Assembly: GCF_964204645.1 (NCBI RefSeq)
Contig: NC_134029.1
Coordinates: 12,798,850 to 12,862,849, forward strand
Length of the DNA stretch: 64,000 nt
From: Tubulanus polymorphus
Lineage: Eukaryota > Animalia > Nemertea
Direction: 5' to 3'
Shown: positions 7,681-64,000 of the stretch, one piece after another
Layout of the letters: each line of letters starts with the position of its first letter
Numbering within the stretch: position 1 is the stretch's first letter
Made by a program: the position numbers and the translations under genes
The notes under the pieces: model-generated
What the model saw: only the letters and a program-made list of their open reading frames with translations
The model's database searches: none
Told to the model about the DNA's origin: nothing

Positions 7681-10159
7681 GCTAAGCCAATCATAAGCCG
7701 CGATCACACAAGCATTTTTGCCCCGGAACAACTGTTCAAGCTTGATGGAAGTCAAAACCCGGTCTACACAAATTTTGTATAACCAAGATTTTGAGGGGTT
7801 TCGTCTTTGAAAGCCCATAACTACCGTACAAAGCGTCGGATCTTTGCGATATAATGTTCTTCCGGTGCAAATAGCATTGTTTTTCACATGTGTAATTTTG
7901 AACAGTTAAAGGTGCTGCATAAAAAAAACCTCAAATAAATCGAATTTTTGAAACTTTTTGGTAAATTTCTCAAAAAATATGAAACCCACGGCTTTCAACT
8001 TTGCGCACCTTCAAGAAAAACCAATTATGAAATATATTTTCGCTTAATCCGTTCAATTCGCCCATTAATAGTGATATTACAGGCTACTGAAATTGCATAA
8101 AAATGTGTTACAAATAGCTTTGAGTGTAGTGTATTAAGCATACGAATGATTATTGATCAGCCAGACCGTTGACATAGGCTCGCTAACGCCAGCCAAGAAT
8201 GATGGCTGTTTTAGTGTAGGAAGGTAGCCTGCACAATTATAGAAATACATTAATTAATATCGATCAGGGAGGTGAACAACGTTATAACCTTTTGGCTGGC
8301 AGTAAACTATTATTATGAGGCACGTTATGAGGACGCAGGTCTTCGTTCTGTAGTGAAATAACAAAGGGTGGCCAAAACGAAGGACAGGGAGCGCGAGGGG
8401 GTGTCCCCCTGTTATGGGAGATTTTGAATTTTTTGTGCTTCTCGGATGCGATTTTAGGCACACTGGGACAGCTAATCATGGTAGACATTTATATAAACGT
8501 AGACAAAAACCTTAAAAAATATTCCAGTTTACGAGAAAATTTAATTCGGAATAGCAAGTATTTAGAGGTTGAATCAGTTGAATTTCATTTCAATTTGTTT
8601 TGTATACCGCGGCTACATTTCGATATGGTTTTACATAAACTGATGATGTTTAGATTAGAGTTCAAGGCCACCATGATGAAATGGAATATTAATTCATGTT
8701 AGCTAGGTGACACTAATATTACTAATTAGGGTTTTCTGTTACATCACAGAAAACCCTATTGATATTCGCGTGTTTATTATGGTTTCTGCTGCTTTCGCAG
8801 AAACCCTCTTGTAATTCTGTTGATTATTATTAGGGTTTTCTGTTATTTCACAGAAAACCCTATTGATATCCGCGTGATTATTATTATTATTATTTTCTTC
8901 CACACTATTTTTACTAAAAGAACAAAGGCTTTGTTACCTTGCCGCTGTTGTCGATACAATCCGTCTGATATCATTCAGCTCACTTCGATCTACAAATACT
9001 CCGTGCGTATTTTGAAGAATCATCGTTACAAAAGCACCGTCGGGCCGTAAACATCGAAAATTGAGCCCCATTCAAAGAGCCGACATGTTTTTGTAAGTCC
9101 TCTTTCCGAAATCTACCACACGTTTCATGTCATATCAATTATCAATTCAAGCATAAATTAACAAATTTATTACCCGAAGATTGCACATTCTGTCACGGTT
9201 TTTAAAAACTAATTTTAACAATAGCCCTTTTCCTCATCAAATCGTATTACCGATATACAGGAAATTTACTACTTTAGATTTTAAAAGCACTGTCGAGCCG
9301 TAAACATCGACGAATCGACGTGTGTCACTACATCGTCGTTCCGGGGATCAGCTGCAAGTTTCACCTCATCATGAGAATCAAATCGAGTACAAATTAATTT
9401 ATTACTACCAGTGATTTGGCTGCGGGCGTCAAGCAGTTAGCTTAGCAATACCTATTTTTCTTTATCAAATTAACCGTGTATTCACTAAGATAAATCATAA
9501 GTGTACCGGGGAGTCGTAGGCCTTAACAAAACACGCCGAAGAGATATAGCGGAGAAAAGCTGTTATGTCGACGAGGTATCAAAATAAAAGAATATATTAC
9601 TTTATTCGGCCGCGGGCTTTAACCTCTATATCAATACCATCAATACTCTTTATTTCCTACAGTACATACCGATCATTGTCAAATGCACAAGGTATTTACT
9701 AAATACAAGTATATAACACAATCCTTTCCGTATGCTGGACTCACACTTGACATTCGGAGCGTTTATCGAGTTTGACGCGGCTTTAGGCCTACCGGTACTG
9801 AGCTTTACTGTCTCAAACAAACACAGTATAATTGTTGCGTTTATTATTGGACTCATTGGATTGAACTTCAAAACAAAATTTACAATATTTAGGTGGGTTG
9901 TTATTCAATAGGCCAACGACCAATCTGTCCGGATGTTAGGCCTACGCATATACATAGGCCTACATAGGCTAGTAGCCTCTACTAGGATAAGCGTTCGCTG
10001 TGGGGGAAAAGAGATCGTTTGCTGTGTCGCTTGAAGTGTTTATCGAGTTTTACGCGGCCTTAAGGCTTTAGTATGGTGGCTGATAAGGGCCATGAATAAA
10101 AAAAACACGAATATGCAAATGAGGGCGGCATTATGACAAAACGACAAAACTAAAATAAC

Positions 10160-11398
10160 GCGACAAAACAATATTTTGGTTTTATCGCCCGCGACAATTA
10201 ATTTTTTTGGTTTTGTCGCCCGCGACAATTAATTCATTTGGTTTTGTCGCCCGCGACAATTCAATATTTTGGTTTTATCGCCAGCGAATATTCATCATTT
10301 TGGTTTTGTCGCCTGCGAATATTCAATATTTTGGTTTTATCGCCCGCGACAATTAATTTTTTTGGTTTTGTCGCCCGCGACAATTCAATATTTTGGTTTT
10401 ATCGCCAGTGACAATTCATTGTTTTGGTTTTGTCGCCTGCGACAATTCATTATTTTGGTTTTGTCGCACGCGACAATTCAATATTTTGGTTTTATCGCCC
10501 GCGACAATTAATTTTTTTGGTTTTGTCGCCCACGACAATTCAATATTTTGGTTTTATCGCCTGCGACAATTCAATATTTTGGTTTTATCGCCCGCAACAA
10601 TTCATTATTTTGGTTTTATCGCCAGCGACAATTAATAATTTTTAGTTTTGTCGCCCCATCAAATTCAATATTTTGGTTTTATCGCCAGCGACAATTCATT
10701 ATTTTGGTTTTATCGCCCACGACAATTCATTAATTTGGTTTTGTCACCCGCGACAAATCAATATTTTGGTTTTGTCGCCCACGACAATTCAATATTTTGG
10801 TTTAATCGCCCGCGACAATTTTTTTGGTTTAGTTGCCCGCGACAATTCAATATTTTGGTTTTATCGCCAGCGAAAATTCAATATTTTGGTTTTATCGCCC
10901 GCGACAATTCATTATTTTAGTTTTATCACCCGCGACAATTCATTAGTTTGGTTTTATCGCCCGCAACAATTCATTATTTTGGTTTTATCGCCAGCGACAA
11001 TTAATAATTTTTAGTTTTGTCGCCCCATCAAATTCAATATTTTGGTTTTATCGCCCGCGACAATTCATTATTTTGGTTTTATCGCCCGCGACAATTCATT
11101 AATTTGGTTTTATCGCCCACGACAATTCAATATTTTGGTTTAATCGCCCGCGACAATTAACTTTTTTGGTTTAGTTGCCCGCGACAATTCAATATTTTGG
11201 TTTTATCGCCAGCGAAAATTCAATATTTTGGTTTTATCGCCCGCAACAATTCATTATTTTAGTTTTATCACCCGCGACAATTCATTAGTTTGGTTTTGTC
11301 GCCCGCGACAATTCAATATTTTGGTTTTGTCGCCCGCGACAATTCAAGATTTTGGTTTTATCGCACGCGAAAATTCATTTTTTTGGTTTTGTCGCCCA
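10160..11398. repeat. 31-bp tandem satellite, about 40 units
   Basis: Consensus cgcccgcgacaattcaatattttggttttat. It explains the overlapping low-complexity ORFs at 10269-11014. Confidence 0.95.
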
Positions 11399-19895: not shown

Positions 19896-20334
19896 GGGTT
19901 ATAAATACACTGCAGCAACAGATGCTTCAGATTAGCAGTGATACATGACAGTATAAACATACTCAGAAACTATAGTGAATACTCTACTCACTGACACGCT
20001 ATAGTTTTGGGTATAGTTCTATTTAGAGTGACTCAGTTAAGATCTGAAGATATTGAAGATACTCTTTGAGGATGTGAAATGTAATGAGCGATTCCCAACT
20101 CTAACCAATAAAAGTCGAGATTGGAGTTAAATTTGTTTACAAATTGTCAATAAGTTATGTAGTTTTAAGATAAATCCAAATTTTCTTCTTTTCATGGCGA
20201 TATAATTCAATGAAGAATTCAATTATAACAAATGCAGCTATAATTTACGACTATATAAATTGTAAAAACTATTAATTGGTAAGGGAAGTGTACAATATTG
20301 TGCAATATTTTTAGGGCAAGGAAGTAATCTTATT

Positions 20335-20867
20335 GTTCCAATTTTTGTTCTAAAATCAGAATAATTTATATTTATATTAAATTCATTACAAATTATATAA
20401 AACTTTGATAAATTAATATTTTTATCTATTTCTTTAAAATATCTAGATCCTGGTAAAGGACATTCTAATTCATTCAATATTAATCTTATTTGAAAATAAG
20501 TATGAAATCTAAATAAACTTTGAATTAATTTAAATTTTGAATTATTTAAATGATCATTCCAACTAATTCCACATCCTGTTGTTGCGCAATAAACAGCAAA
20601 ATTTAATTGGTTCTGCCAATACTTTATATCAGATTTTAATAACCATTGTTTTTCATCTTTCAATTTTTTTTAATTGATTAAATATACATGAAATATATTT
20701 TCCATCTTTACATTAAAATTATTACTTTCAGTAACATAAATATCTAAATTAATTAATGAATTTAAAACTTCATTTCTATATGTACTATTTTTATTAAAAT
20801 CTATTGCTGGAATAATATATTCAATTCATCTATTATAGTGGAAAGCTTTTGGAAAACTAACTACCAT
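20335..20867 (-). pseudogene. Conserved uncharacterised Polinton-associated protein
   Basis: W..QLNFAVYCATTGCGIS..HL...FRFHTYFQIRLIL.EL..PLPG is a motif I recall from invertebrate Polinton-like elements. There are stops upstream of the tracked ORF. Confidence 0.55.
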
Positions 20868-20949
20868 TTATATGATCAAAAATTAACAATTTAATTATTC
20901 TTTTAATAATTTATCTTGTTCTTCAATTGTTATATTACCATTTAACTAA

Positions 20950-21315
20950 TAATATAATCTAATGTATTTTTAAATTATTTATTTCTTTTATATTAGATTT
21001 AATTTTTTCTTTATAACTTTTTATATTTAATTTTGAACTTATTCCGGTTACAACACTTGATGATAATCCTTAAACGCCAATTGATACAGCTAAAGGTGTT
21101 AATGGACTGAATATTGCTTTAAATGTCAATACCGAACTAATTGTAACTGAACCACTAATAATGAAATAAAATATGATTTTAGATTATAAACATTTTTTCT
21201 TTTTAACTTTTAAATCATTTTCAAATTCTAATATTTGTTTTTCCAAATATAATTTTAATTTAGTTTTATTTATATCATGAGGAATAATATCAATATTATC
21301 AACTTTGTCATCCAT
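20950..21315 (-). pseudogene. Small two-TM/coiled-coil protein of the Polinton remnant
   Basis: MDDKVDNIDIIPH...IIFYFIISGSVTISSVLTF...LAVSIGV*GLSSSVVTGIS..KEKIK: hydrophobic stretches flanked by charged helices, with internal stops. Confidence 0.5.
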
Positions 21316-21824
21316 TTATTTAGTAAAAAAATTACTAATTAGTAATAGAATGATGACCACACTCAAACGTGGTGAACGGATAATAAGATAAAATCCCACT
21401 ATTTACAGATTAAAAGAATTTAAAAACCAGAATTTATTTATTAAATCTAAAATATTTAAAAGACACGACGTTTCGATCTCACCCTATTAATTTCTTGCGC
21501 TAATGTTTCTAAATTATATAATCCAGGCTTAAGATAAAGATGAAACCATTAATTTTTTTTCTATCGTTTAAAAAAACTCTAAGTTCAATAGTTTTATTCG
21601 ATATATTGTAAAATGAGTTACATAAACTAATATTTACTAATTTCAAATCTACACAATTTCTAAATTCCCTATCTAATTGTACTAGTAAATTAAGTCATTT
21701 ATAATTTTTAAGTCTTCTAGAATCAACAAATATTCTACATTCTTTTAATTCAACCATTAATTATAACTCAAAAAAATTACCTCGAACCAAAAAAATTAAT
21801 TTAAAAAAAATTTTTCCAAAATAA

Positions 21825-22820
21825 ATGGACGAGAAGATAGAATGTGATATTTGTGGTGAACTTCAAAGAAAAAATAATATGGCTCGACAGATGAAAAAAA
21901 CATGATAAAAATTATAAACCCCCTAAAATAAACTACCCAAATTGCAATAAATTATTTTCAAGAAATTATGTTAAAAAACATCCAGAGAAGTGTAAAATTA
22001 ATAACTTAATGGTTATTGTTGATAGTTACGAAAGGAATAGTAATTCTGTTGCAACTGAACCTGAAATGATTTGGAATAGACCTTTATTATTTTATGATAA
22101 GAATAATATAAAGAATCATTTCTGTGAGCATTGTTGAAAATATAGCCCTGAAAATATAGAAGATTGGGAGAATCATCAATTTAAAAAAGCACAATTAAAA
22201 TATCTAGATGAAATTTTTAAAATATTTTCTATCATACAGCAGAATAAAAGCAATGGCTTGAAAAAATGAAAATGATCGAAAATGATAATGGTGAAATAAC
22301 TAAGAAAGATATAATCAAATCATTTATTCCATCAACATGTAGCACAAACGAGAAGAAAATGTATTTATATTTATTATTTACAATTATTATAAAAAACCAA
22401 AAAACAAAAGAAAACAGGGAAAATATAAAAGAAACATTCATAAAAATATTAAAATATTATGTGGATCATAAAATAACAGATTCAATTAATTATGAATTCT
22501 TTTTAAATAAGATTGTAAATTTTTTAAACATAGATATTATAATTCCATTTGATGAATTAACAAATAAAAAGAAAGAAAAAGAGCAAAATGAAATGTGGAA
22601 CAATATAGATCTTCATTTAAATGAGAAAAATGAAATGAAAGAACCTAAAGAAATTATAGAAAAACAATCAGGTGAAAATGAAGAACATCTAATGAATGAA
22701 AGTTATGAATATTTAATTGAATGTATTAATGAACAAAATATAGAACTTTTAGAAGATGAAGAATTAGAAGATGATGATTTATTTGTAATGAAACAATTTC
22801 ATAAAAATATTAATAATTAA
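21825..22820 (+). pseudogene. Zinc-finger/acidic-tail protein of the Polinton remnant
   Basis: MDEKIECDICGELQRKNNMARQMKK(H) C2H2-like start, disrupted, continuing into the 22266-22820 ORF. Its stop overlaps the PolB stop (convergent genes). Confidence 0.5.
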
Positions 22821-25800
22821 TGGCCATAAGGTAAAGTTTTTATTCCATCATCCAAAATATATCTTTTATCGTCGAATGGATTTAAACTAGTTTTTTCAAC
22901 TTCATTAATGTACACCTCGTGATCTTCTGATCTTAAACAATTCATTCTATGTTTCATTACAATTGAGTTATATAAACACTTTATATAATCTTGAAATTCT
23001 ATATGTTTATCAACCACATGCTTTGTTATTCCTTTTAACTTTTTTCGCTTCATGGTCTTTTGTTCTATAACTATACATTTTATTTCTTATCCTAACAAAT
23101 TCAATCATTTCATCACCCCCTAATTCATCTTTAAATTTACCAAGCTGCTTTTTATTTTCGTTACTAAATAATTCATGATCTTTTGGATAATTGCTAAAAT
23201 CGAAATGATGCTTTAATGCTTTTAAGTCTTTTGTTATGTCTTTTGTTTTGATTTTTAGTATGTATGCATCCGTATCGACCGCTATTAATGGGAACCCAGA
23301 ATTGAATGTTCCATCATCTATTGATAAATCATAAACATAATCCGATGGGTAATATATTTCAAATAAATCTTTAACTTCTTCTGTTAACTCATTTTCTACA
23401 TGGCTTAAATTAAAGCAATTTGGTTTAGATTTAATCCAATATTCATATTAAAACCTAATGAATTGCATAATATATTCAATCCTGATATAGCAACTTTTCC
23501 TTTCTGAGCTAAAGATATTGTTTTGCGGTTTTTGAAACCTTTTGAACAATCTGCTGCGTAGAATCCTATAAAATACCATTTTCTTAGATTATATTTTGCA
23601 TTTAATACATAATCTGGAACTATCTTTTCTTTTGATGAAGTATTACTTGTAACTATTGCATGAATATAGAATTCATCATTATATTTTGTAGCAAAATCTT
23701 TTGGATTATTCTGATAGTATTCTATAAACTGCTGATGATTTCATATGATCCACGATTCTAAATGTTTTATTTGGATAAACTTCTTCACAGTATTTCTTAG
23801 TTCTTTCTAATAATTTCAAATCTTGATTACATAAATACCAACAATATCTATTGCACCCAACATAATTATACACACCTGCTGAACCATCTCCCATAAAAAA
23901 ATCCTTTAATAAAATATTCTTTTACTTCTCATGTTTCTGGTTCTATGTTATAAATAGTATCAATTATTTCATCAAATGACATATGATTCACTCTTGGATA
24001 AAATCTTTTATGTAATAATTCATCTCGATTTTTATATCAGTTGGTTTTATTTCATCACCATTTCGTTTAATTAACCTGTGATCTTCAGTAACATCTACAA
24101 ACCCTAATTTGATTCAAACTATAAATCTTCTTATTCGTTTTATGTCTAATAATATTCTTTAATTTTTTCCATCCATTTCTTGTCCAAACATCCATTAATC
24201 CATTTATTTGTATTCTTTTTCACCATATGAAATATAACGTTCATTTTGACATTATTTTTGAAATTCTTCTGATTAATATTTGATTATTGTATTTTAATAA
24301 TATTGGAGTATCAGCTGTTACAGAATCAAAATATAATAATTCACTATGTTTTTCCCCGAAAAGTTGTTGTAAAACATTATAATAAAAATCATACATTAAT
24401 AATTTTGATATTTCTAAAACAGTTGAACCAACGAATATAGGTTTATTAAATTTCATTGACGTTCTTTTTAATTTACTGCTGTTAAATAATCTTCAAATCT
24501 TTTATTTCCTAAGTGTCTAGGACTTGATTGTAAATGTCTCAATCGTTCAGAATTATTTACAAATTCTATATCATTTCTATTTCTAATATTTTCACATGTT
24601 TTTCCATAAAAACGATTATTCATTAATTTAAAAAAATCTTTTTCAAAATCAGTTTTAGATATTGTTTTCTGTTGAGTATTGAAATCTATATATTTTTCTA
24701 ACCACTTCGATTGATTAAATTCAATATATCTATGTACTTTCTTTAATTTCATTCCTTGTCTTAGATAAAATTTTAACATTCTATAATGAACAATATACTT
24801 ATATTTATTATTTTGTGTTAATATTAATTTTTCTGTAAAAACATGGTCTTTCGGTTTTATTTTTTTCTGGTATTTACTTAGATAACTATCATCTACGGCT
24901 AAATGTTCTGGGCAATAAGGTAAGTTTCTTGTTTTAAACTTTATATTTTCAGGATATTCTAAATCAACTACAAAGAAATAACCAATTGGAACATCATCTT
25001 CTAAACTCATAATTGCGCTTTCCCAATTAGTTTTATCATCATTTTCAACTTCTGTTAATGCCGCGTTATTATAAAATCATTATCAACTAAACTTTTTGCT
25101 AAATAATCTAATGAACTTGCTAGAAATCTATAAGAATCTAAAAATCTAATGCAACCAAATTGAAATGAAATATAATTTTCAGATGTTTTAGCTAATAGTT
25201 TAAAATCCTATTTTCTTACATTTAAATCATTTATAGCATTATATTCTTCTATTTATTGATTAATGGCGCCTAATTTTTCTGATAATTGTTTTATAAATAA
25301 GTGGGTATCATACCCTGATAAATTATGAAATAATATTGGTACGAAATTAACTTTTTTAGCTTGTAAATTACAATCTTCATGAGCAGCTCGGCGATATTTT
25401 GAATTTAAATGATCATGATCTCTAACTTTTTTATCAAATGAATAAAATCGTTGTTCACATAATTCTTTATGTTTTAGTAATGCATTTTCTGTCATAGATT
25501 TAGATAAACATTTTCTACAAAGATAAATCTTAAGAAATGTTTTGTAATATCATCAATCTATAACATTTTCATCATCATAATATTCTGTTAAATATAAAGC
25601 TTCTAATGTATAATCTTTAATATTTTTACCTTTTGTCTCTGGTAATAGCATTAATTCATTAATACATTTATTTTTAAATTATTAACTTTTTCTAATTTAG
25701 GAATCATTTTAATAGTTACTGGATATTGATCAATCTTATATAATGTTACATATTTCCGGTACTCTGTTATTCTATAAACATGTTCTTCTGTTGGATGTTA

Positions 25801-25884
25801 ACAACTAATAATTGACCATAGAAAACATTTATTATCTTCATTTTGAACATTTATTACTGCTTTTGTTGTAAATGGTAATTTAAT
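22817..25884 (-). pseudogene. Protein-primed family B DNA polymerase (pPolB, Polinton group-2/adintovirus type), disrupted and intein-containing
   Basis: KAVINVQNEDNKCFLW; KVRDHDH..KYR.AAH..CN (EndoVII-like insert); FHNLSGYDTHLF (ExoII); RFLDSYRFLASSLD; VDLEYP; FFKLMNNRFYGKTCENIRNR (motif B); LLYFD|TDA (motif C); KLKGI; PFDDKRYILDDGIKTLPYGH. Confidence 0.95.
23274..24324 (-). mobile_element. Intein with LAGLIDADG homing endonuclease in the pPolB catalytic motif C (frameshifted)
   Basis: Block A SVTADTPILL; VWTRNGW..IIRHKTNKKIY; block B GFVDVTEDHRLI; block C GFFMGDGS; block D KIVPDYVLNA; block E FIGFYAADCS; block H QKGKVAISGLNILCNSLGF; block F YVYDLSIDDGTFNSG; block G PLIAVD followed by T(+1). 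Confidence 0.93.
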
Positions 25885-26697
25885 ACAAGAGCCCCAAGGG
25901 GCACAATGGCCAGCCTGTCAGATTTGCTTTTTATAAATGATGTAATCTGTGGGTTATATTTATCAATATACACTCCCTGCTCAATATCATTTACATAGTA
26001 AAATCGTGTGTTAACACAGACAGCAGGAACGAATGTAATATAGAAATACTAAGTTATTGTATTGTTCAACGCCCCCTGGTGGCCATAAAAAAAACCAATG
26101 AGCTTGAAACTCACCTCGATCATAGAACATGTCATGAGCTACAACTTTCCAATTGATTATAGTAGCAAAATATGCTCAAGTATCAATTATGATGTGGAAA
26201 AACTTTTTTTCCACCTACGAATGAGTACTGATAACCCCAAGATGGCTGCCAAGTGCGTCATAATTGCCTGGTCAAAAATACCCTCTCGGATATAAAAGAT
26301 CCCTTTCCAAAGAATACCCATTACAAATTGCAATGAAACATGGCGCACCATTAGAAAGCTACAGTACTCAGAATTCAGGCCAAAATTGACATTTTTGGGA
26401 ACAAAAAAGGTCACAGTACGGCCATCTTGAGTCCGATCGACTCAATTTTTCTCATGCCGATGGGCCCTCGGGGGAGACAAATATATACGAATGATCAAGG
26501 TTATTGATAAAAGTGTCTTCAAAATTTCCCTCGAAAACTTCAAAAATGTGTAAAAAGTGCTGATTTTGGCGAACAACAATGGCTGCCAGTCGGCCATCTT
26601 GAATCTGACAGGGCCAGTTTTGGCCTGAAGATGTGTCTAGGGTAGATACACGTATAAAACAAATATCAAGACATTACCTTGAAGCGTCTTCAAAACT

Positions 26698-32361: not shown

Positions 32362-34266
32362 TCAGAGTGTATAGGATAAATGTAGTAATAATAATTCATG
32401 CTGGTAATGTTTTGGTAAACGCGTAATAAATTCAAATAAACAATCCTTCGAGAAATTTTCGCTGTAAAGCTGAATGTCGATTCCGGACTTGGAAATATCG
32501 TCATAGGGAAGTTGTACAGAGTCCGGATGCGATTTCATAAAGAACACTGATCTTCCCAGAATGTAAATTCGCCTGAATCCTCGTTCGGTCAACTGCTGTA
32601 ATTCCTAAAATAAAGTATCAGTAATCAGTAACTGATAGTTAAAGAGGATTATGGCAGCGTCAAATAAAATGACGGCCCAAAATAACAGCACAACGAAGGT
32701 ATAAAACATCTGACTAGTATTAATGATAATAATTACCTTTAACTCTGTGAATGTTGCGTACAGATTTGACAGGTCCTTGTGATGAAAGCAACGCCTTCGA
32801 TATCTTTTGCGGAAATGATGACACTCGAGGCGAGTGTATCGAATCTACAGCTTTGTGCTGTTCCACTGCCTGTAAATCAAAATGACAAATCTATTTTAGT
32901 TTAGTTAATATACATGTATTGTCGTAAATGTTTTGCGTGGGCTATGAACTTTTTGTTCATTGTTACATATAGCCTAAACTAATAGGGAAAAAATGGATTT
33001 TGTTTTCAGCCCCACGGTCTACATTGACAATAATACGTGATACATTGTACGAGATGAATCTGATTTTGGGAAATACATACCTCGAGAAATATAGCTTTCT
33101 GGTGCTGCATTGTTCTAAACACCGTTTTCGCAGCTTGCATTTGTTGTATTGGAATGATTTCTGAAATGGTTAATGCATTGGATCCCCTTATGGTGTGTAT
33201 CATCGCCTCAACAAATATATGCAGTAAAGCAGTGAGGCGATAAATGTGTGACGCATCCTTTGACGATGCCATGTGTATATCGCCGTTCTGTTCTTGGTTT
33301 TCTTCTGAAATTTGAAAATAAACGGAATTGGTGATATGAATGCATAGCCTTACTACAAAAGACCTTCAATTAAACCATTTAGCAACTTACCGATATTTTC
33401 GTGGTATCTGCGTTGAAGGTAATCGATGTTCTTTCCTGATTTCGTTGAACAAATTTTCACTTTCGTCCGATAATGTGTAAGTCACTGCATTGTTTAGGTG
33501 TGCATCATACACGGACTGAAGAATGCTTTTGAACCCGTTTTTCAAGGGGGAGTTCATCACTTCGCGATGCGCTCTAACGTTTTCTTCGGGTTGATGCAAT
33601 TCAGGTTTGCATACAGAATATAAATCTGTCCACAAAACCGTCCCCACCACACAATTGTACTAGTTCCACTAGAAGTGGTTCAGCCTGAACCATGACGATC
33701 ATCGACATTGATGTCTTACTGAATCCTCTTAGTCCGTTCGATAAAGTTTTAAGTATCTCCTCGACTTCCCCACATTTTGCAAAGCAACGCACGTTCAGTT
33801 TCGCCCTTTTTTTTGTTTCACGTTGATAGCTTTGAGGAGTCTACCTCCTTCTTCCGATGTGATTAGTCCGTAACCAGAATTTAAAGGCTGGTGTTTCTGC
33901 ACCCCAGCTACAGAATAAGTCTCCAAAATGAAGTTATTTCCTCCATTTGTATCGCTATAGTGATCCGAAAACAGTTCGATAATCCGCTTGAAACAATTCG
34001 ATTTGCCACATCCAGGATCGCCAACTATCATCATGTACCAGTTCAAAGGATCGATGAACCCAGCAGCTGCTGTACTGACAGTACTGACTGACTGTACTGA
34101 CGAGTGTTTGGTCCAGCAACCGATGCAATACACGATCCAATATCCCATTGGAATTTAATCGTATATGCACTCTGATAGAGTTTGAAGATACTACTTTTAG
34201 AATAACGTTTACTAGCCATGGCATGGAGAGTAAGTTTACTGTGAACTTTGAGCAAATTATGACCAT
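32362..34266 (-). pseudogene. Spliced DUF3987/YfjI-like P-loop ATPase (helicase) pseudogene
   Basis: PLNWYMMIVGDPGCGKS (Walker A), LITSEEG (Walker B-like), MIVMVQAEP, DGFVDRFIF and SKDASHIYRLTALLH. It has frameshifts, and GT-AG-like boundaries near 33390/33305, 33080/32870 and 32735/32605. Confidence 0.7.
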
Positions 34267-35099: not shown

Positions 35100-36098
35100 A
35101 ACTAAGAAGATTATCGAAGAGCGGAATCAATTGAAACTCAACCGTCCACTACGGACGCCAGTCAGCGATTACAAATTGGAATTTCGATCACCCAACAGTG
35201 TTGTGTAAACCCGGTACCGGTGTACAAGTCGACGTGAAAGGCTGCCTGGAGTATCGTGAGTATTAACACGGGTTTTACTCCCGAGTAGGAGCCTTGGATT
35301 TGGTGATTTAGCATTGTGGTGGTCAGTGTAATGCAGGTGTGCTGCTCGTATTGCATGTTGCCGTCCGACTAATACCTGTTGCGTGTTACTGTCCGAACAC
35401 TACGTGTTGCATGATACCGTCCGATTTAATACGTGTTGCGTGTTACCGTCCGATTAATATGGTTTGCATGCTATTGTGCGTCGAATTCGTGTTGCATGTT
35501 GTTATTTGTGTTGTGACGTGTTGCACAGAAGTCTTGTGCGATACAGATTTTGTTTAGTTGCTTTGCAAGGAATCCAAACTGGATTTAAGTGCACATTTAT
35601 TTGTTTACATTGTTTGCATGTGTAGCTCAGATTGGGTTTGCATTGAGATTGTGGTTGACTTACCTGTGGATCCGAGCGTGTGAGTTCTGTTCTACAGGGG
35701 TTGTGATAGAGAACGGTCTGTTAATTGGTTTGTGTAGCTGAGCTGAGCGGAGAACATTTTATTTGCGGTGCTTGATGCGATCATTTCTTTTTGCGTTGTT
35801 TTAGTTAAATGTAAATTTACTGCATGTTGTGATTGCTTTATTTTCTTTTTGTGTTTGCCTATTCTTAATTTGTCCATTAAAGCACACAATTAATTGTACT
35901 ACGAAATACCTTGTGAGATGGGTTAAGCTGTTAAGGTAGTTGAGAGTGGGACATATTATTGGTTTGTACAATTAACTGAGTGCGTATTAATTAGTTTTAA
36001 ACAAGTGTTAGAGTGCATTTGTTTAACCCTCTGTTTCTGTTCTATTGAGACTTGGTGAAACTAAATATCTGTGTTTTTGTGCTAATATATAGGAGAGA

Positions 36099-37472
36099 AT
36101 GCCCTCCTTGTGGGAACAAGCGGTTTTTGTTGGGGGTATTCAAGGGTTAACTAATCCGGTTGGATTTTGTCTGGAATACTTTCAGCCTTGTGGGGAAATT
36201 AGAACCTCTAGCCAGAACTCGGATGGGGTTTTTCTTATCTTTGATTCTCCAGATGCATGTTCTCAAGCGAGTTTAGCTGATAACAGGAGGATTCAGGCAG
36301 ATGGTAAGTCCATAACCCTACGGGTGCAGAATATTGATTCGTCCCAAGAGCGATTCTTGCGTCAAATATATCAGGCGGAAGAGGATCTGGACCAAATGGT
36401 AAGATCATTCTCAAACCTACCACCAGGGACTCAGAGTAAACTGGTTGACAAGTTGACGGCTTCGGTGATGAAACCCAAAAAAGAAACAAGCCTCGGTGAA
36501 TCGTATTCCGGTCCGACATTGAGGCCACCAGCACTCTCACAACCCCAATTTGAACCGAGGGTGAATGTGTCGGTGCAAGCACCAAGGGTCGGAATGTTTA
36601 GTGGAACGGAGAGCAAAGGAGAGATATCCTACGCCCAATGGCGCCAGGAAGTGAAGGCACTTGTTCGTGATGAAGCACTCGGTGATGCCACCCGGATGAG
36701 GATAATTCGTGCATCATTAAGGGGAACTGCATTACGGGTGTTAACCAATCTATATGATGAGGAAAATGAAGTTACGGCAGCGGATGTTCTTGATCAGATG
36801 GAACTCAAATACAGGGAGGTGCAAACGGCGGAGGAGTTGATGATAAGATTTCACTCAGCGAGTCAAGGAGACAAGGAAACGATAGCGGATTGGTCCACAA
36901 CAATCGAGGAGATAGCTGCGCAAGTGAAAGCTGCGGGACATGGACCTACCTATATAAATGACGAGACACTAAAGGTACAGTTTTGGCCAGGGTTACAAAA
37001 TATGCAAGTTAAGATGTCGACGAGAACATATAAAGAGCCAGGTTATTTGTTTCGTCAACTAGTCAGGCAGGCTCGGAAGGTGGAGAGTGAAATGGGTAGC
37101 GAGATAGGCCGCACTTCTATCAACTCTTACCGGAGAAAGAAGCCGTTCATTCAGCAAGTTCAGGGGGTTGCCGTGGAAAAGACGGAATCGAACGAACTAG
37201 CTGAACAATTAAGGAAATTGACTGAGCACTTAAAGCGAATTGAACGTGAGCTGGAAGCCGTCAAGGAAGGGCGGCTGGAACAACGGAATTGGCGCGGGAG
37301 GCGATGGCAGACTGGCCCAAGACCGCCTAATCCGATTGTGCCCATGGAGGAAAGTGTTGGCAATGCGGTGATAAAGGTCATATGCGACGTAGCTGTCCGT
37401 CATTGCCGGGAAACGAGGAACCGCTCGGATCAGGAGGCAGGAGACGGGCGGAAAAGGAGGACAGCGCCTTAA
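36099..37472 (+). CDS. gag: PNMA/Ma-like Gag; the zinc knuckle is now out of frame
   Basis: FSG..KGEISYAQWRQEV...IRASLRG.A is a PNMA-type capsid motif. CWQCGDKGHMRRSC lies in another frame at ~37355-37400. Confidence 0.85.
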   Translation: MPSLWEQAVFVGGIQGLTNPVGFCLEYFQPCGEIRTSSQNSDGVFLIFDSPDACSQASLADNRRIQADGKSITLRVQNIDSSQERFLRQIYQAEEDLDQMVRSFSNLPPGTQSKLVDKLTASVMKPKKETSLGESYSGPTLRPPALSQPQFEPRVNVSVQAPRVGMFSGTESKGEISYAQWRQEVKALVRDEALGDATRMRIIRASLRGTALRVLTNLYDEENEVTAADVLDQMELKYREVQTAEELMIRFHSASQGDKETIADWSTTIEEIAAQVKAAGHGPTYINDETLKVQFWPGLQNMQVKMSTRTYKEPGYLFRQLVRQARKVESEMGSEIGRTSINSYRRKKPFIQQVQGVAVEKTESNELAEQLRKLTEHLKRIERELEAVKEGRLEQRNWRGRRWQTGPRPPNPIVPMEESVGNAVIKVICDVAVRHCRETRNRSDQEAGDGRKRRTAP

Positions 37473-37479
37473 CCTATCA

Positions 37480-40400
37480 GAGTTAATTGGAGGGCCTAAC
37501 GAGATTAGCGCTCAAATAAATGGTCGTGAATGTAGAGTCCTGATCGACACAGGTTCGATGGTCTCAACCATCTCGGAAGACTTTCTACAAACTCTCCAAG
37601 ATGGTGAGGTGTATCCTTTGTCCGACATCGAACCCAAGTTTCAGGTGCACATGGTAAGTTGAAAGGTGTTACCGTTTAAGGGTAAATTTACTTGGGTAAA
37701 TTTAAAATGTGAAGGTGATGATTTGGATATTTTGGCTCTAGTTGTACCGTCAACAATTTATCACCGAGAAGTACCCGTTTTGGTTGGAACCAATGTCTTA
37801 CGTCGGCTCAAAACTCCATCGTTTGTTACCCAGCTAGCAATGGAAGCCCCTCTCGTCCGAACGACGCAAACTTTATGCGTCCACGCTAATTCGGAGGTTA
37901 CCGTGCATGGGCAAGTCCGAACTGCTTGTCGTGGTGGACTGATGATGGTAGATGGAAGCGTAGTTAACGTTCCTGGCAGTTTAAGTGTCATACCGACTGT
38001 TACCGAAGTACCGTCAGTCAAATGTTGCAGGATTTCGGTGCGACTTAGGAACAGTAGCGAGCGGGATATCACTATTCCTCATAGAGCAGTGATTTGTGGA
38101 GTGGTTCCGGTGACTGAAGTGGAGACCTCGGACTCTGAAGAGGATGTGAAAGTCGAAGTGGAGTCTGGAAAACATTCGTGGGTGTCTGACGAAGAGTTTA
38201 TAGCGGGTGTCAACTTGGCGGGAGCAAAAACAGAGGAAGAAAAGGAAATGCTCCGGGAATTGCTTGTAAAATGGAAGCATGTTTTCGCCGCAAATGACCT
38301 GGACTTGGGTACGGCGAGACTGGCCGAGCACACCATCCATCTTACAGATGAAGAACCAGTAAACCTTCGGTACCGTCGTGTTCCTCCTGGGATGGTGGAG
38401 GAAGTACGCCAGCACCTACGAATGATGTTGGATGCCGGAATAATCCGTTCATCCAGCAGTCCCTATTCCAGTCCGGTCGTGTTAGTACGGAAGAAGAACG
38501 GGGAATTAAGGTTCTGCGTTGACTACCGGGATTTGAATCGAAAAACCGTTCCCGACCGTTATAGTCTGCCCAGGATTGACGAGGTTTTGAATAATTTGGC
38601 CGAATGTGATCGTTTTAGTGTGATCGATCTTAAGTCTGGATACTGGCAGTTGAAGATGGCGGTTTCTTCGAATTCAACAAGATGCCTTTTGGCTTAACAG
38701 GGGCCCCGGCATCTTTTCAGCGACTGATGGAAAGGACCCTCGGAGATTTAAACTTGAAAACCTGTTTAGTATACATTGATGATGTAATTGTATTTTCCAA
38801 AGGTGCTAAACAGCATATGGAACGTCTGGAGGAAGTATTCGAGCGTCTAGAGAAGGCCGGGCTGAAAGCTAAACTGAGTAAGTGTGTTTTTTTACAGGAC
38901 GAGGTATCTTATCTTGGGCACCGCATATCCAAGCGAGGCATTGAGGCCTACCCCGCCAAGATAGCAACCGTCCGGGATTGGAAGCCACCTGAGACCGTAT
39001 GACTATCTGTATGGGCAGCGTTGCGTAGTTGAAACAGACAACAACCCACTCACCTACGTCTTGAGAACCGCAAAGTTAGACACAGTAGGGCATCGTTGGT
39101 TACAGGCGTTATCGGTGTATGATTTGGAGCAAAATTATACGCCTGGGAAATCCATGGGAGATGCAGATGCTTTGAGTAGGAAGATAAACCGCGAGGTAAT
39201 TGTAGCCATGGCTTCATCTACGCATACAGCCACAGTTCCTTTGAACGTCACCGAAGGAAGTGTTACGGACGTTTTCAGTGAGCTCCCTAAACTCAGGCTA
39301 GCTGAACTACAGGACCAGGATCCGGTGATCACGAGACTCAAGCGACTCATCGTCGGAAAAAACCATTCCGTCCAATGGATCGCGCCGAACAAAGATACCG
39401 GAAATATTTTCCGTCGCTCATAATTGAGGAAGGTTTGCTTGTGAGAAAGAAAACTGTGGATGGTTTCGGAGTTACTCAAGTGCTGGTACCGGTGGAGGAG
39501 AGCGGGAATATTCTTCATTGGACCCACGATGCACTTGGACACGTTGCTCGAGATAAGACATGGAAGGCGGTAAGTTCACGTTTTCTTTGGCCAGGAATGT
39601 TTACGGATGTGGAAAGATATCTGGGGAGTTGTAGAAGATGTGTTGTGCAGAAGGCCAGAGATCCCCGTGCACCTCTCGAGTCAATCCTCTCAAGTGAACC
39701 TCTTGAGTTACTATGTATGGACTACCTGAAAATCGACCCATCTCAAGGGTATGAAAATCTCCTCATTCTCACTGATCATTTCTCGAAATACTCCGTTGTA
39801 ATACCTACGAAGAATCAGTTAGCTCAGACAGCAGCGCGGGCGATATACGACAACTTCATTGTGCGGTATGGGATTCCAAAAACCCTCCATAGCGATCAGG
39901 GACGGAATTTTGAAGGAAAAGTGGTGAGCGAACTATGTGAAATTCTTGGAATCGTGAAAAGTCGTACGACGCCATATCATCCGCAAGGGAATGGTTGTGT
40001 GGAACGTATGAATGGAGTACTTTTGTCACGATTGAGGCTATTAGATCCTACTCACAGAGCAAAATGGAAGAACCATCTCAATACAGTAGTCTGGCAGTAT
40101 AACTGCACTCCTCATTCCACGACTCAATATTCTCCTTATACTTTGATTTTCGGTAGGGAACCTGTCCTGCCGGTTGATCACGTGTACGGTTTGGATGTTT
40201 TGACCTGTCGAACAAAATTTGGGGAAGATCTTCAAAGGGAAATTCAAGAGACATGGCAGACTGCTTGTGGACACATAGAAAAGCATGGGGAAAGAACCGG
40301 GTGGTATTACGACAAGAAGGTCACCGGAAGACCAGTCTCCGTTGGAGATTTAGTGCTAGTTCGGAATATGGGACCTCAGGCGATGGGTAAGCTGGCTGAC

Positions 40401-40925
40401 AAATGGCGCGACGAAGAGTATTGCGTGGAGGCCCAACCTAACGAAGATTTCCCGGTGTACATTGTGAAAAGTCTGTTGACCGGAAAGCGCAGGACGCTTC
40501 ATCGAAACCTATTGCATCCGCTGGCTTATCCATTACGGGATGAAGCTCAACAGGAACCAACTGTAAGGCGACAGGAAAAAGAAAAAACAAACCGTTTTAT
40601 TGGAGACGTCGACGATACATTAAAAGATGTGGAGGTAGAGGTATCTGTTCCCATTCACACTTCAGAGAAGATTTCTGTCGGTGATGGGGAAGTTGAAGTT
40701 TTACTGACGGCATCCGTGGCAACGGAACAAAATCGCACTTCAGTCACCCTCGGATCTGAGGAGCACGATGAAGGGGAGATCGTCCCGGAATCCGATGGCG
40801 AGGTAAGTATAGACGTCGAGGACAATCGGGAAGTTGAAATGGACGCAGAGGAATCAGAATCTAAACCGCCTACTCCTCCTCGCCGTTCTGGAAGAGAGCG
40901 CCGGATGCCCGCTACGGTTTACTAG
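37480..40925 (+). pseudogene. pol: Gypsy pol (PR-RT-RH-IN), disrupted
   Basis: LIDTGS protease; PVVLVRKKNGELRFCVDYRDLN; MPFGL; YIDD; TDNNPL; HHCC; D-D-E integrase (LCMD, HSDQG, VERMN). Deletions at ~38660 and ~39000. Confidence 0.95.
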
Positions 40926-48348: not shown

Positions 48349-49250
48349 ATGATAGTTGGAGTTGCAGTTGTGAGAGATGACAAAAAAATCATCACCTATA
48401 GAGAACTGATTGGAACAATCCTGAGTACAAGATGTGGAACTATTGACTGGTTAATGGATCAAAAGTTGATTGGAGTTTCTCATCAATGTCCAGTTTGCAA
48501 TGGCGAAATGAAATTGTCATTGGTCGTCAGCAGAAAATCTGCGAGTGAAGGATGGCGATGGAGCTGCTGAAAACGTGTTGAGAGTGTGTTGCACCAACGG
48601 TTCAAGTCGCTTCGAGCAAACAATTGGTTTTTGAAATCTAATTGAACGATCGCAGAGATATTAGAAATAACGTATTGGTTATTGCACGGAGTCCAGCAGA
48701 CTGTCATACAGACTGAAATGGGCTTATCAAGCAAAACTATTGTCGACTGGGCTAGCTTTTTCCGTGAAGTTTTGCAAACTTGTTGTTTTTGACAATTGTA
48801 AAGCGATAAGGCGGACTGGGATCAATAGTGGAAATCGATGAAAGCAAGTTCGGAAAACGGAAATTCAACCGAGGCCGATGCGTAGATGGGCAATGGGTTT
48901 TCGGCGGCATTGAGAGAGAAATTTTTAAGAATGTGTTCATGGTCAGTGTCGATAAACTTGATAGCGATACAGATACCGATGATCGAAAAGTGGATACTAC
49001 CAGGAACAAAAATCATGAGCGATTGCTGGAAAGCGTATTCCAGCCTGAATCAACGCGGTTTCAAGCATTTGACCGTTAATCATAGTGTCACGTTTGTAGA
49101 TCTGGATACAAACGACTAATCTCATAGAGAATCAATGGCTAAATGCGAAGAAGAATTTCCCAAAGTATGGCACAGTGAAGATCCATTTCGATTCGTATCT
49201 TGGACATTACTTGTGGCAATGTCGTGTTGGGGATGATGATCCATTTCTTA
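48349..49250 (+). pseudogene. Merlin (IS1595/ISXO2-like) DDE transposase, disrupted
   Basis: CPVC..GWRWSC zinc ribbon; VEIDESKFGKRKFNRGR..GQWVFGGIER; IMSDCWKAY; HLTVNHS..FVD; IENQW. Confidence 0.92.
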
Positions 49251-49730
49251 AATTTACAATCAAATAAATGTACCATAAAAAGGTTGATTACAATGATGGA
49301 CTAGTAGGCCTATGTGTATGTGTTTTTAATTTGTAATTAAAATTTTCATTGAATTGTCGGTGATTGACTGTTAACCAAGTATTAAGATTATTTGATTTGT
49401 GGATAGTTGAAAATAAATAATGTAATTAATTTCTTTAGTTGTAAATAAATTCTATTTTTCACCTTCATATCTATTTCTGTAATCAAATGAATAATTGTGA
49501 ATAATTGTAAATATAAAAATTGACTTTTTATAGAAATGATTGTTTTTATAGAAATGAATGGTGGATTGTAAATAAAATGCGTCGCAACTTGTATTAGGCC
49601 TATATGTATTCTATTTCTTTTCATTTTTTGGAGGTCATAATTTCCAAAGTGCTGGATGAAGAATGAATTAAATCTAATTTCATTAAACATCCCCTGTTCT
49701 CCTTAGTCAGTCGTGTAGTTTCACTCATTG

Positions 49731-61437: not shown

Positions 61438-61503
61438 CGTTCTGATTGGCTGAAATATATTGTGACGTCATACGGGATTTTCCGACACTAATTCCAACTA
61501 AAA

Positions 61504-64000
61504 ATGGCGCGTTCTTCAACTTCGTCGGGGATTTTCAAAGTTGGAGACAAATTTTCGTCTTTTGACGATGTTTTGGCTGCTATAAAGTTGTTCGAAGATG
61601 AGCAACTTATGTCGTATTGGCGACGTCACACTCGTTTACTGGATGGCGCACCAAAGAGTACACCAAAGACAAATGAGAACGCTATAAAATACTATCAAGT
61701 ATATTATCACTGTTTGAAAGGGGGAAAGAAACACAAGACATGCAGCAAGGGCTTGAGACCAAACCAGAAGTATGTATATATCACTAAGGTCTATCACTAA
61801 ATTGATTTTGTGGTTACTACTTAGAATCTCATGTACAGTGGGATCGGACTTAGAACCAGGATTGGACTTTGAGTAGGCCTACTGAAAATTCTTCATTATT
61901 CCTTCTCTCATTATTTTCCATTTTTACGTTCTAATTATATCCACATAATAAACACATAATGCTAAAAAAAAGTTGGCAAAATCAATATCTAAGATGTAGA
62001 TTGCCATTAGAAGTTTAGATGGCAATATTTATGTCTTGATATTTAGGGATTATTATTGGAATGCGACTGTCTTGTTGTGCAAAGATATTTTGACAGCTGA
62101 GCAACCACTAGCGCCATCTATCGAACATAAATTGAAGCTTTTGTCAGCTTATAGAGCCACCAATATATAAGGACCAATATATAATGATATATAATAGAAC
62201 ATTAAGCTTTTCGGCGTTGGTGACTTAATATAATGAAGGAATAATGGATATGAATAATGAAAAAAAACCTCATCAACTTTTGACATTTGAGGTGACAGTA
62301 AACTGATACCTTAATTCTATAGGCTTTATAGCTGCAGTAAGACCATCACAACATTAATATGTTCGCAACATTATTTCTAGGTATCGTTCTTTCTAAAACA
62401 GCTTTAAACTCTCGTTCTCTGTTTTTTATGGGCCTTTTTAATCATGTTTTCCTTTCCCTGTATTTACAGGACATTCCGTCAAGATTGTGAATCATGTGTT
62501 CACTTCCGCGCTTCAAAGGATGGACAACATCTTGTGGTGACATATCTGAATACTACACATAACCATGAATGCACAGAGGGGGCATATGCTTTTATCCCTA
62601 AGTGTCGGAAATTAGATGAAAAAGAGACAATCGAAGTTAACAATATTCTAAAGACCAGACCGAACAAAAAAATCTTACAAGATCACATCAGGAGCATTTC
62701 TGGCAAGAAGTTAACTTTGCGTGATATTCAAAACCTACAGAAAAGATTAAAGGGGACGCCAGGTGACTTAGAAGAGATTTTAAACAGTCTCATTTCTGAA
62801 AGAGGTAATTATGATTCATTTCAGATTCATTTCAGTGATTTATATAGCGGCTTTGTTTACCTATCATAATTTTTTCCATTCTATCGGACTGTAAACACCA
62901 TTTTTTCACTTTGAATCTGGCTCATCTTTTTTGGAAAGGATTTTAGTTAGTTATACTGTGAAATCTCCTCTTTCGTTGGCTCCGTCAAGAAAGGGGGATC
63001 GGAATAATCGTTGCCACAGAACCTCTAAAATAACCTAAGATCACGCCGAGATTTACCTAACGTCTTGCTTGCTTTATTCAACACGCCAAAGAGAACACAA
63101 GAATCACTACACAATATGGTGTCACTAAAACGCAGATTTGGACTCGGTAAAAGCCGGATACCGGACTTTACCGGTCCATCACAATACTACGGACCCTATG
63201 AACCAAAGGCCTATAGGCCTACAATATACAGATAGGCGATATTGATAACTAACTTGCCAACTTTTATTTCCAGACGCTACGGTAGAAGTCGTCAGTGATG
63301 ATACCGATATGCTTCGCGCGATATATTATCAGGATAATATCATGAAAAAGAAATTCAAAAAGTATCCAGAACTATTGATAGCAGATGCTACTTACAAGCT
63401 TAATAATCTACGAATGCCAGTTTTTCTACAAATAGTGGTTGACGGAAATGGAGAAAGTGAGATAGTGTCAGTTTTTTTGATCGTCAGCGAAGATCAGGGA
63501 ACGTTAGAGATGTTGCTTGAGATATTTAAGAAACATAACCCTGCCTGGACAAGAACAAAAACTGTTCTTACCGATAAGGACATGACAGAGCGTGCCGTGT
63601 TTAAAAATCTGATGCCTGATGTTAAGTTACAGCTGTGTTTGTTTCATGTCCTCAAATCAATGCGAAGAGAAATACATTGTGAGAAAATGGGCATCCGCAT
63701 CGGAGAGAAAAATGCTTGTCTAGAAATAATTCAAAAAATTGCGTATTCAAAAAATGAAGAAGAATATACGAGCAACGTAGACAAACTCAATAATACTCGA
63801 ATACAGCCCGTTATCGACTATTACAGACATTCTTGGCATGATATCAGATCTGAATGGGTGTTAGGTCTGAAGCAATCCTGTCATTATGGCAATAATACAT
63901 CTAACAGAATTGAAAGCATAAACCAAAAACTGAAGCAGGTTGTGGCGCGATTTTCGAATTTAGAGAATTTCTTTCATGATCTCAAGCTTGTAATTGCTTG
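61504..64000 (+). CDS. MULE/Mutator transposase (ZSWIM3-like), 3 exons (61504-61769, 62470-62804, 63274-end), runs off the window
   Basis: Phase-consistent GT-AG introns; FAR1-like YYHC...C..HNH domain; ADATYKLNNLRMP, VDGNGESEIV, VLTDKD, LCLFHV and NRIES. No stop codon in the spliced frame. Confidence 0.92.

Follow-up and report, generated by a model that had tools for sequence, protein, structure and literature searches.

A decayed LAGLIDADG intein in the catalytic motif of a Polinton-type protein-primed DNA polymerase, and its kinship with giant-virus inteins

The 64,000-nucleotide stretch of DNA analysed here (the window) carries on its minus strand the remains of a Polinton-type gene for a protein-primed family B DNA polymerase (pPolB), the catalytic motif of which is interrupted by an insert of 1,051 bp, equal to 350 codons plus one base. 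In six-frame reading, the polymerase runs to ELLYFD, the insert opens with SVTADTPILL from 24324 and closes with FPLIAVD, and the polymerase resumes as TDAYILKIK from 23273, the motif being divided as YFD / insert / TDA. The alignment to the intein-free relative P0002 runs to 24322 and picks up at 23276, and that to P0001, also intein-free, likewise picks up at 23276; an earlier note on this DNA, made from the letters alone, had described the same split. The intein blocks A, B, C, D, E, H, F and G follow one another across the three minus frames of the insert, in the order given by that note, and lead to the Thr at position +1 that it had named. The features are as follows.

23274 to 24324, minus strand: site-c (pol-c) intein with a tandem LAGLIDADG endonuclease, decayed (six-frame reading, alignment and profile)
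24295 to 24324, minus strand: intein block A, with Ser at position 1 (24322-24324)
24078 to 24098, minus strand: intein block B (TxxH)
about 23880 to 23903, minus strand: first LAGLIDADG motif (block C), acidic residue kept, with a frame break inside it
23597 to 23626, minus strand: endonuclease block D
23543 to 23566, minus strand: second LAGLIDADG motif (block E), acidic residue kept
23453 to 23506, minus strand: endonuclease block H
23295 to 23339, minus strand: intein block F
23274 to 23294, minus strand: intein block G, the final residue non-canonical in this copy
24325 to 25073, minus strand: pPolB N-extein, the polymerase core through motif B to YFD, with one frame break near 24475 (83.9% identity to P0001)
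22817 to 23273, minus strand: pPolB C-extein from the Thr at +1, with one frame break near 23045 (80.7% identity to P0001)
25061 to 25893, minus strand: upstream remnants of pPolB, the exonuclease region with an EndoVII-like insert (P0002 residues 290-753; P0001 residues 22-147, then 329)
20240 to 25900: the Polinton-like fragment as a whole, approximate extent 5.7 kb, with a content of guanine plus cytosine of 21-27% compared with 32-49% elsewhere in the window

Among the characters of class 1 inteins, the window copy has Ser1, the TxxH of block B, the Asp of block F and, as the first residue of the C-extein, Thr (23271-23273); the catalytic Asp is retained in each of the two LAGLIDADG motifs. 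A profile built from giant-virus inteins only matched the three minus frames over 23283-24324 with E values of 1.5e-36, 1.6e-21 and 1.5e-16 and found nothing below E 0.14 elsewhere in the window. The three frames scored 125, 73 and 57 bits, and 300 shuffles of each reached at most 7.5 bits; because the shuffles stay so far below the real scores, the likeness to inteins is not due to chance. The profile search for Hint and LAGLIDADG domains that the earlier note had proposed thus gave a clear signal with the giant-virus profile and, as described below, with Pfam on intact relatives, but not with Pfam on the window itself, where none of five single-frame pieces spanning the insert matched an intein or LAGLIDADG family and 11 window pieces were without a relevant match. 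NCBIfam gave a weak intein_Nterm match on the insert (E 0.024, under the cut-off), and a scan against Rfam returned no match. The window intein is 58.7% identical to the intact intein of P0014 (202 of 344 aligned residues) and 40-41% identical to two aligned giant-virus-type inteins. These comparisons support the assignment of the insert, from its sequence, to the inteins with LAGLIDADG content of the pol-c (site-c) allele.

The earlier note had called this intein full-length, which holds for its length but not for its reading frame. Frameshift-aware alignment to seven intact inteins revealed 5-7 frame breaks and 1-3 stops; the breaks lie near 24111, 24025, 23892, 23710 and 23435, and some alignments add two near 24200-24250. 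A single open frame shared with both exteins is absent from the window copy and present in the intact relatives P0014, P0035, P0139, P0160, P0164 and P0165. Block G ends in Asp in the window, compared with Asn in 147 of 147 other inteins of a comparison set that was partly chosen by terminal Asn itself, and all six intact pPolB relatives have the Asn. In a set of reads comprising about 12% of a raw-read DNA run from a separate study, 91 of 93 reads disagree with the window at this codon, and the terminal Asp therefore appears to be private to the window copy. At block E, the window copy shows Cys in place of the Gly of the six intact pPolB relatives. By its sequence, then, the window copy is dead, a pseudogene of full length; the intein family as a whole, unlike this copy, is probably still live.

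The protein in which the intein resides was assigned through its exteins. A protein search with the N-extein yielded 416 relatives among 811 candidates, and none of the 120 matches listed carried PF00136, the family of the RNA-primed polymerases of giant viruses; the exteins therefore did not match that class. The closest relative among the listed matches was P0001, with the intact motif YFDTDS. More distant pPolB relatives, at 33-45% identity, sit in 26 Polinton-like loci, and a gene scan of seven of these found the double jelly-roll capsid in four, the rve integrase in four, the A32 ATPase in six and a virophage capsid in one. Because integrase, ATPase and capsid genes accompany its relatives in their loci, the polymerase is called Polinton-type, an assignment that the sequence comparisons support and that bears out the earlier note, the exteins being 81-84% identical to P0001. 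In the window, the gene is without about 290 N-terminal residues, and about 180 more are deleted near 25061-25073; the EndoVII-like domain (PF02945) scored near or under the cut-off on relatives. Terminal inverted repeats, a target-site duplication and genes for an integrase, a packaging ATPase, a protease and a capsid were not found in the Polinton-like fragment, which is truncated.

The window intein is not an isolated case. Four of the 120 listed extein matches (P0014, P0035, P0051 and P0100) show the same beginning of an intein, and the P0014 intein, used as a query, had 1,302 matches among 2,604 candidates, the 120 listed being 114 PF00136 polymerases, five pPolBs and one topoisomerase. 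Complete and intact pPolB inteins of 337-354 residues, at the same site as the window insert, occur in P0014, P0035, P0139, P0160, P0164 and P0165. Pfam LAGLIDADG_3 (PF14528) is over the cut-off in all six, and Intein_splicing (PF14890) is over the cut-off in two and at E ≤1e-5 in the other four. A profile of 32 giant-virus relatives matched solved inteins and I-DmoI, and a structure model of the giant-virus relative L121, which is not a pPolB intein (predicted local distance difference test score, pLDDT, 82), matched homing-endonuclease inteins best; a single-sequence fold of the pPolB intein protein P0139 gave no confident model (pLDDT 29.8). On these comparisons, the window intein is part of a clade resident in pPolBs, with members in seven or more polymerases from two classes, rather than the product of a one-off jump into this genome. 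The YGD that precedes the intein of P0014, a motif found in giant viruses as well, was considered as proof of a co-converted giant-virus flank and rejected as such, the intein-free pPolBs P0024 and P0134 having YGD too.

The origin of this clade was addressed with an intein tree, for which 79 of 148 rows were kept, giant-virus rows more than 65% identical to a kept row being dropped. The label giant-virus-type in this set stands for PF00136, giant-virus contig names in IMG/VR and motif context, not for row-by-row taxonomy; the tree was rooted on six site-A inteins, and archaeal and phage pol-c inteins lay outside the set. All seven pPolB inteins form one clade, with a support of 100 in the Shimodaira-Hasegawa-like approximate likelihood ratio test (SH-aLRT), the sister of the window intein being P0014 (98). 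The clade has a long stem (0.54) and falls inside a 97-supported group together with 23 giant-virus-type site-c inteins. Profile and tree together support the kinship with the PolB inteins of giant viruses at site c that the earlier note had put forward. The favoured reading, the best although not proven, would be that the intein passed once from a giant virus into pPolB; this jump would be older than the window copy, and any host is possible for it.

Mobility was examined on an extein tree of 56 of 143 rows, in which distant rows were thinned and P0160 was left out as too distant. Five changes are required on this tree to account for the six intein carriers, and the approximately unbiased (AU) test rejects a single clade of carriers (p 5.9e-6); the window polymerase is nested among intein-free polymerases, and its sisters are intein-free. 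P0160 belongs to a different pPolB class, its extein being 23-28% and its intein 42-49% identical to those of the other carriers. The P0035 cluster, from another genome, has 136 members, of which 40 were read; the 15 of these listed lie on one contig each, of 57 kb to 1.0 Mb, and seven carry the intact intein, four have an empty motif and four have no visible motif. Intein-plus and intein-free alleles, which the earlier note had proposed to look for, are thus both present in one family. Between P0035 and three empty alleles of this family there are 22-31 differences over about 1,190 residues, and 13-14 of these fall within residues 1001-1100, at the site. Outside positions -10 to +12, the 66 informative columns of P0035 agree with its own family in 60 cases, with neither family in six and with the other family in none; inside, five of six agree with the related other family and one with its own. 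This flank tract has the form expected as the footprint of homing with co-conversion of the flanks. Homing of the pPolB inteins is thus likely, as judged from the sequences, because carriers are scattered on the polymerase tree, intein and extein of P0160 are mismatched and a foreign flank tract lies at the site. A separate pPolB cluster of 39 members (P0279, P0413-P0426; contigs to 3.7 Mb) is about 77% identical to the carriers P0164 and P0165; all seven members that reach the site, among 15 listed, are intein-free and have the unusual motif ASDTDS.

Taken together, we hold with fair confidence that the insert is a decayed LAGLIDADG intein of a Polinton pPolB family at the YxD/TD site, likely derived from giant-virus site-c inteins and likely spreading by homing. 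The intact precursor is predicted to fold a Hint domain, in which Ser1, the His of block B, the Asp of block F, the terminal Asn and the Thr at +1 would drive splicing, roles that are established in intein chemistry. Splicing is predicted to remove the insert and to rebuild the active site of the polymerase; because the insert splits the motif that bears the catalytic aspartates, replication of the element would require splicing, and imprecise loss would leave the element inviable. The tandem LAGLIDADG domain is predicted to cut empty YxD/TD[S/A] alleles, upon which repair would copy the insert plus a short flank, and multi-copy Polinton families would offer many targets within a single nucleus. 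The YxD/TDS motif, nearly the sole sequence common to RNA-primed and protein-primed PolB, would be the only plausible bridge between the two classes: a single jump from a giant-virus gene to a pPolB may have taken place in a co-infected cell, between 18-bp motifs differing mainly at one codon, possibly through a virophage-like element and without an animal host being required. Later, the intein would have moved among Polinton lineages and entered an invertebrate germline with the element, and the window copy would have died with its host gene. We note separately that the viral contig L140 (10170-12044) has an intein-free pPolB of the window class (37% identity) alongside a Sputnik-type virophage capsid gene, and virophage-like elements of this kind would suit as a meeting place with giant-virus inteins.

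Several observations weigh against this account. Both trees were quick searches with SH-aLRT support only, and a tree that separates all giant-virus inteins from the pPolB clade, 22.3 log units worse, was not rejected (AU p 0.195). Because of this result, the donor direction is unproven, and the crossing from nucleocytoplasmic large DNA viruses into pPolB claimed in the earlier note stands only in part: nesting is favoured, but the direction is not fixed and the event is older than the window copy. Moreover, the pPolB intein junction was not found in viral contigs, and the intein was present in none of the 26 Polinton-like loci fetched with a polymerase alignment. The C-junction pattern gave 11 metagenome and four viral loci, of which only L128, encoding P0051, was pPolB and the others were of giant-virus type; a junction pattern leaving out Gly-type sites gave no match in viral contigs, scans of viral contigs with window pieces or P0035 confirmed none of seven, three and six stretches, and a protein search with the endonuclease piece of the window confirmed none of 58 candidates. 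The pPolB clade might accordingly be the sister or even the donor of the giant-virus site-c inteins, or both might stem from an unsampled common source such as a phage or an archaeon. The AU result, the long stem and the sampling of the tree leave some room for this; the clade, however, is put within the giant-virus inteins by three starred branches nested in one another (96, 97 and the site-A split), the end motif FN[T/S/C]G[F/Y]xLI..N is common to only 57 of 133 giant-virus-type inteins, and giant-virus members far exceed pPolB members in number and diversity, and we regard the alternative as unlikely.

The evidence for homing is likewise open to other readings. Ordinary recombination between families could also yield the flank tract of P0035, and among window-class carriers intein and extein identities run in parallel (59 and 57% for the window and P0014; 69 and 73% for P0035 and P0139), which also fits long co-descent plus losses. 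If the intein had been present in an early pPolB and descended vertically, with many precise losses and homing ceased, one would expect such parallel identities, the recurrence of the pairs window-P0014 and P0035-P0139 in both trees and the confinement of all window-class carriers to one 97-supported polymerase subclade of 30 rows. Against this, an intein 42-49% identical sits in a polymerase only 23-28% identical in P0160, near-identical plus and minus alleles show a foreign tract at the site only, and at least five changes are required on the extein tree; we therefore judge vertical descent somewhat less probable still.

The reads also bear on the number of copies. Parts of the stretch occur in four runs, all under a single organism label, to which the raw-read run of the separate study was added. 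On 22800-25300 we found 7,615 reads, which divide into 63, 831, 2,791 and 3,930 in the likeness bands of 99% and above, 95-99%, 90-95% and below 90%, and the source species therefore holds many diverged copies. Depth is about 200 within the insert compared with 410-470 in four adjoining bins, and three reads and one contig are listed with a joint that passes over the insert to 24325; a short diverged stretch lies in between, and the length is that expected of an empty site. Probably, about half of the related copies are without the insert; if the 63 near-identical reads (about 4x) represent one locus, a rough calibration, there would be some tens of intein copies. Three facts temper the picture: the empty-site joint in three listed reads is below what the depth step leads one to expect, quicker divergence of the insert could itself reduce its depth, and no intact intein copy was shown in the source species. 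Contigs do cross the N-terminal junction of the insert.

The surroundings of the element are dense in dispersed repeats, and the ratio of observed to expected CpG is 1.01, without depletion. The other features of the window are the following.

1 to 800: integrase-DUF5641 remnant, BEL/Pao by its motifs
10049 to 11300: tandem array with a period of 31 bases
33798 to 34154: DUF3987-like fragment, under the cut-off
36093 to 40925: little-decayed Ty3/Gypsy element, encoding a PNMA-like gag, a reverse transcriptase and an integrase
48700 to 49300: Merlin/IS1595-type transposase remnant
61492 to 64000: MULE/ZSWIM transposase

From this transposon content, an invertebrate host is likely. BEL/Pao has been termed a metazoan subclass (PMC3118150, in the part available). 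The entry into an animal germline through an endogenous virus that the earlier note had claimed is borne out as to the virus-like element and its decayed, multi-copy state, but the animal host is inferred from the transposons only. A source outside the animal germline (a symbiont, a free virus, a mis-join or a non-animal eukaryote), which the lack of non-transposon host families in 112 window frames save the weak DUF3987 match and of any examined read or contig spanning the element-host junctions might suggest, is very improbable, since the copy is heavily decayed, the reads of the second study hold many diverged copies, element-copy contigs at a depth of 30-57 resemble the flanking repeat contig at 31.5 and the window carries the BEL/Pao remnant, the PNMA-gag Gypsy element and the Merlin-type and MULE/ZSWIM transposases.

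The literature was compared through the available portions of the papers cited. The pol-c intein of Mimivirus-type giant-virus PolB (PMC549080) and archaeal PolI site III share with the window the YxD/TD site, as defined in PMC549080, the Ser start, the Thr at +1, the size of about 340-360 residues and the make-up of Hint plus tandem LAGLIDADG. The host proteins of those inteins carry PF00136, whereas that of the window is protein-primed, of the PF03175 class and Polinton-type, and the window copy, unlike them, is a pseudogene in a repeat-rich nuclear genome, likely of an invertebrate. Homing between such distant genes was considered implausible by Ogata et al. (PMC549080). Inteins in viral-like DNA polymerases have been described on nuclear scaffolds of Klebsormidium, Tetrabaena and a labyrinthulid, along with inteins of Anaeramoeba (PMC10710043); like the window, these are cases of an intein in a eukaryotic nucleus inside an endogenous virus, with viral vectors and homing between distant homologues, but the hosts are algae and protists, and the words 'polinton', 'metazoa' and 'animal' are absent from the main text as available.

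Nuclease inserts of the HNH and VSR types are known in Polinton pPolBs (10.1101/2023.08.22.554363; PMC11071308), and Krupovic et al. suggested intein invasions as the source of such inserts (PMC11071308). They resemble the window insert in placing a nuclease domain within a Polinton pPolB, but are described as nuclease domains and not as splicing elements, the word 'intein' being absent from the available text of 10.1101/2023.08.22.554363; the window insert, by contrast, is a complete Hint-LAGLIDADG intein that divides the catalytic motif, for which splicing is predicted to be obligatory. Polintons/Mavericks and adintoviruses (PMC8502044), like the relatives of the window element, combine pPolB with rve integrase, A32 ATPase, double jelly-roll capsid and PLA2-like genes; the window copy, unlike them, is a 5.7-kb fragment without these genes or terminal repeats, and 'intein' does not occur in the available text of that paper. 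According to reviews, metazoan genomes have no inteins (PMC8529194, in the part available), and a eukaryote-wide survey, as far as its accessible text goes, names no location for inteins other than large DNA viruses, plastids and the nuclei of fungi and protists, iridovirus inteins being on its list (PMC5784728). In the mostly open literature covered, which excludes the SI appendix and datasets S1 and S2 of PMC10710043 and bioRxiv supplements, we found no published intein in a pPolB or an animal genome, in agreement with the earlier note, which knew of no description in the pPolB of Polintons or adintoviruses; the available parts of PMC12220804, 10.64898/2026.10.13.758929, PMC13768754, PMC3671162 and 10.1101/299784 describe none. 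The window intein is thus an ordinary LAGLIDADG intein of the pol-c allele; what is unreported is the class of its host protein and, likely, the host kingdom. Some iridoviruses infect invertebrates.

These results bring true inteins into what is likely an animal genome, if only inside an element of viral derivation rather than in a gene of the host, and carry the pol-c allele beyond RNA-primed polymerases into protein-primed ones, genes that share little besides a six-residue motif. In the pPolB intein family, genetic contact of giant viruses with Polinton-like viruses would have left a physical trace, and the family is a concrete example for the proposal by Krupovic et al. that nuclease inserts in pPolB arise through intein invasion. 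Multi-copy families with both alleles would make homing, decay and escape of inteins measurable within one genome. We also entertain, at slightly less than even odds, a live intein cycle in animal germlines, in which intact inteins that splice and home convert Polinton polymerases of both major pPolB classes and the P0035 family, with a fresh conversion tract, is caught with a sweep in progress; if true, metazoans would thereby gain their first natural homing elements that act by protein splicing.

Some further observations concern the comparison sets and the remainder of the element. The giant-virus-type PolBs P0149, P0151 and P0153 have two intein-like blocks at motif C with three residues between them. 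P0158, a type II topoisomerase, contains several inteins, two of which group among PolB site-c inteins in the tree, likely through non-allelic spread. Polinton-type polymerases under bacterial or archaeal genome labels (L146-L161, P0005 and P0011) probably represent mis-binned contigs. The element itself continues over 20238 to 22820 with additional decayed reading frames, which are rich in AT.

20238 to 20939, minus strand: decayed reading frames of the element
21830 to 22820, plus strand: decayed reading frames of the element

The frames in 20238 to 22820 had no Pfam match at threshold and none to the 26 Polinton-like loci, and the read depth over this part is comparable to that of the remainder of the element. 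Within it, the bin 21353-21669 has about 10 times the read depth of its neighbours, with an opposite-strand joint at 21486, perhaps a short match to a host repeat of high copy number.

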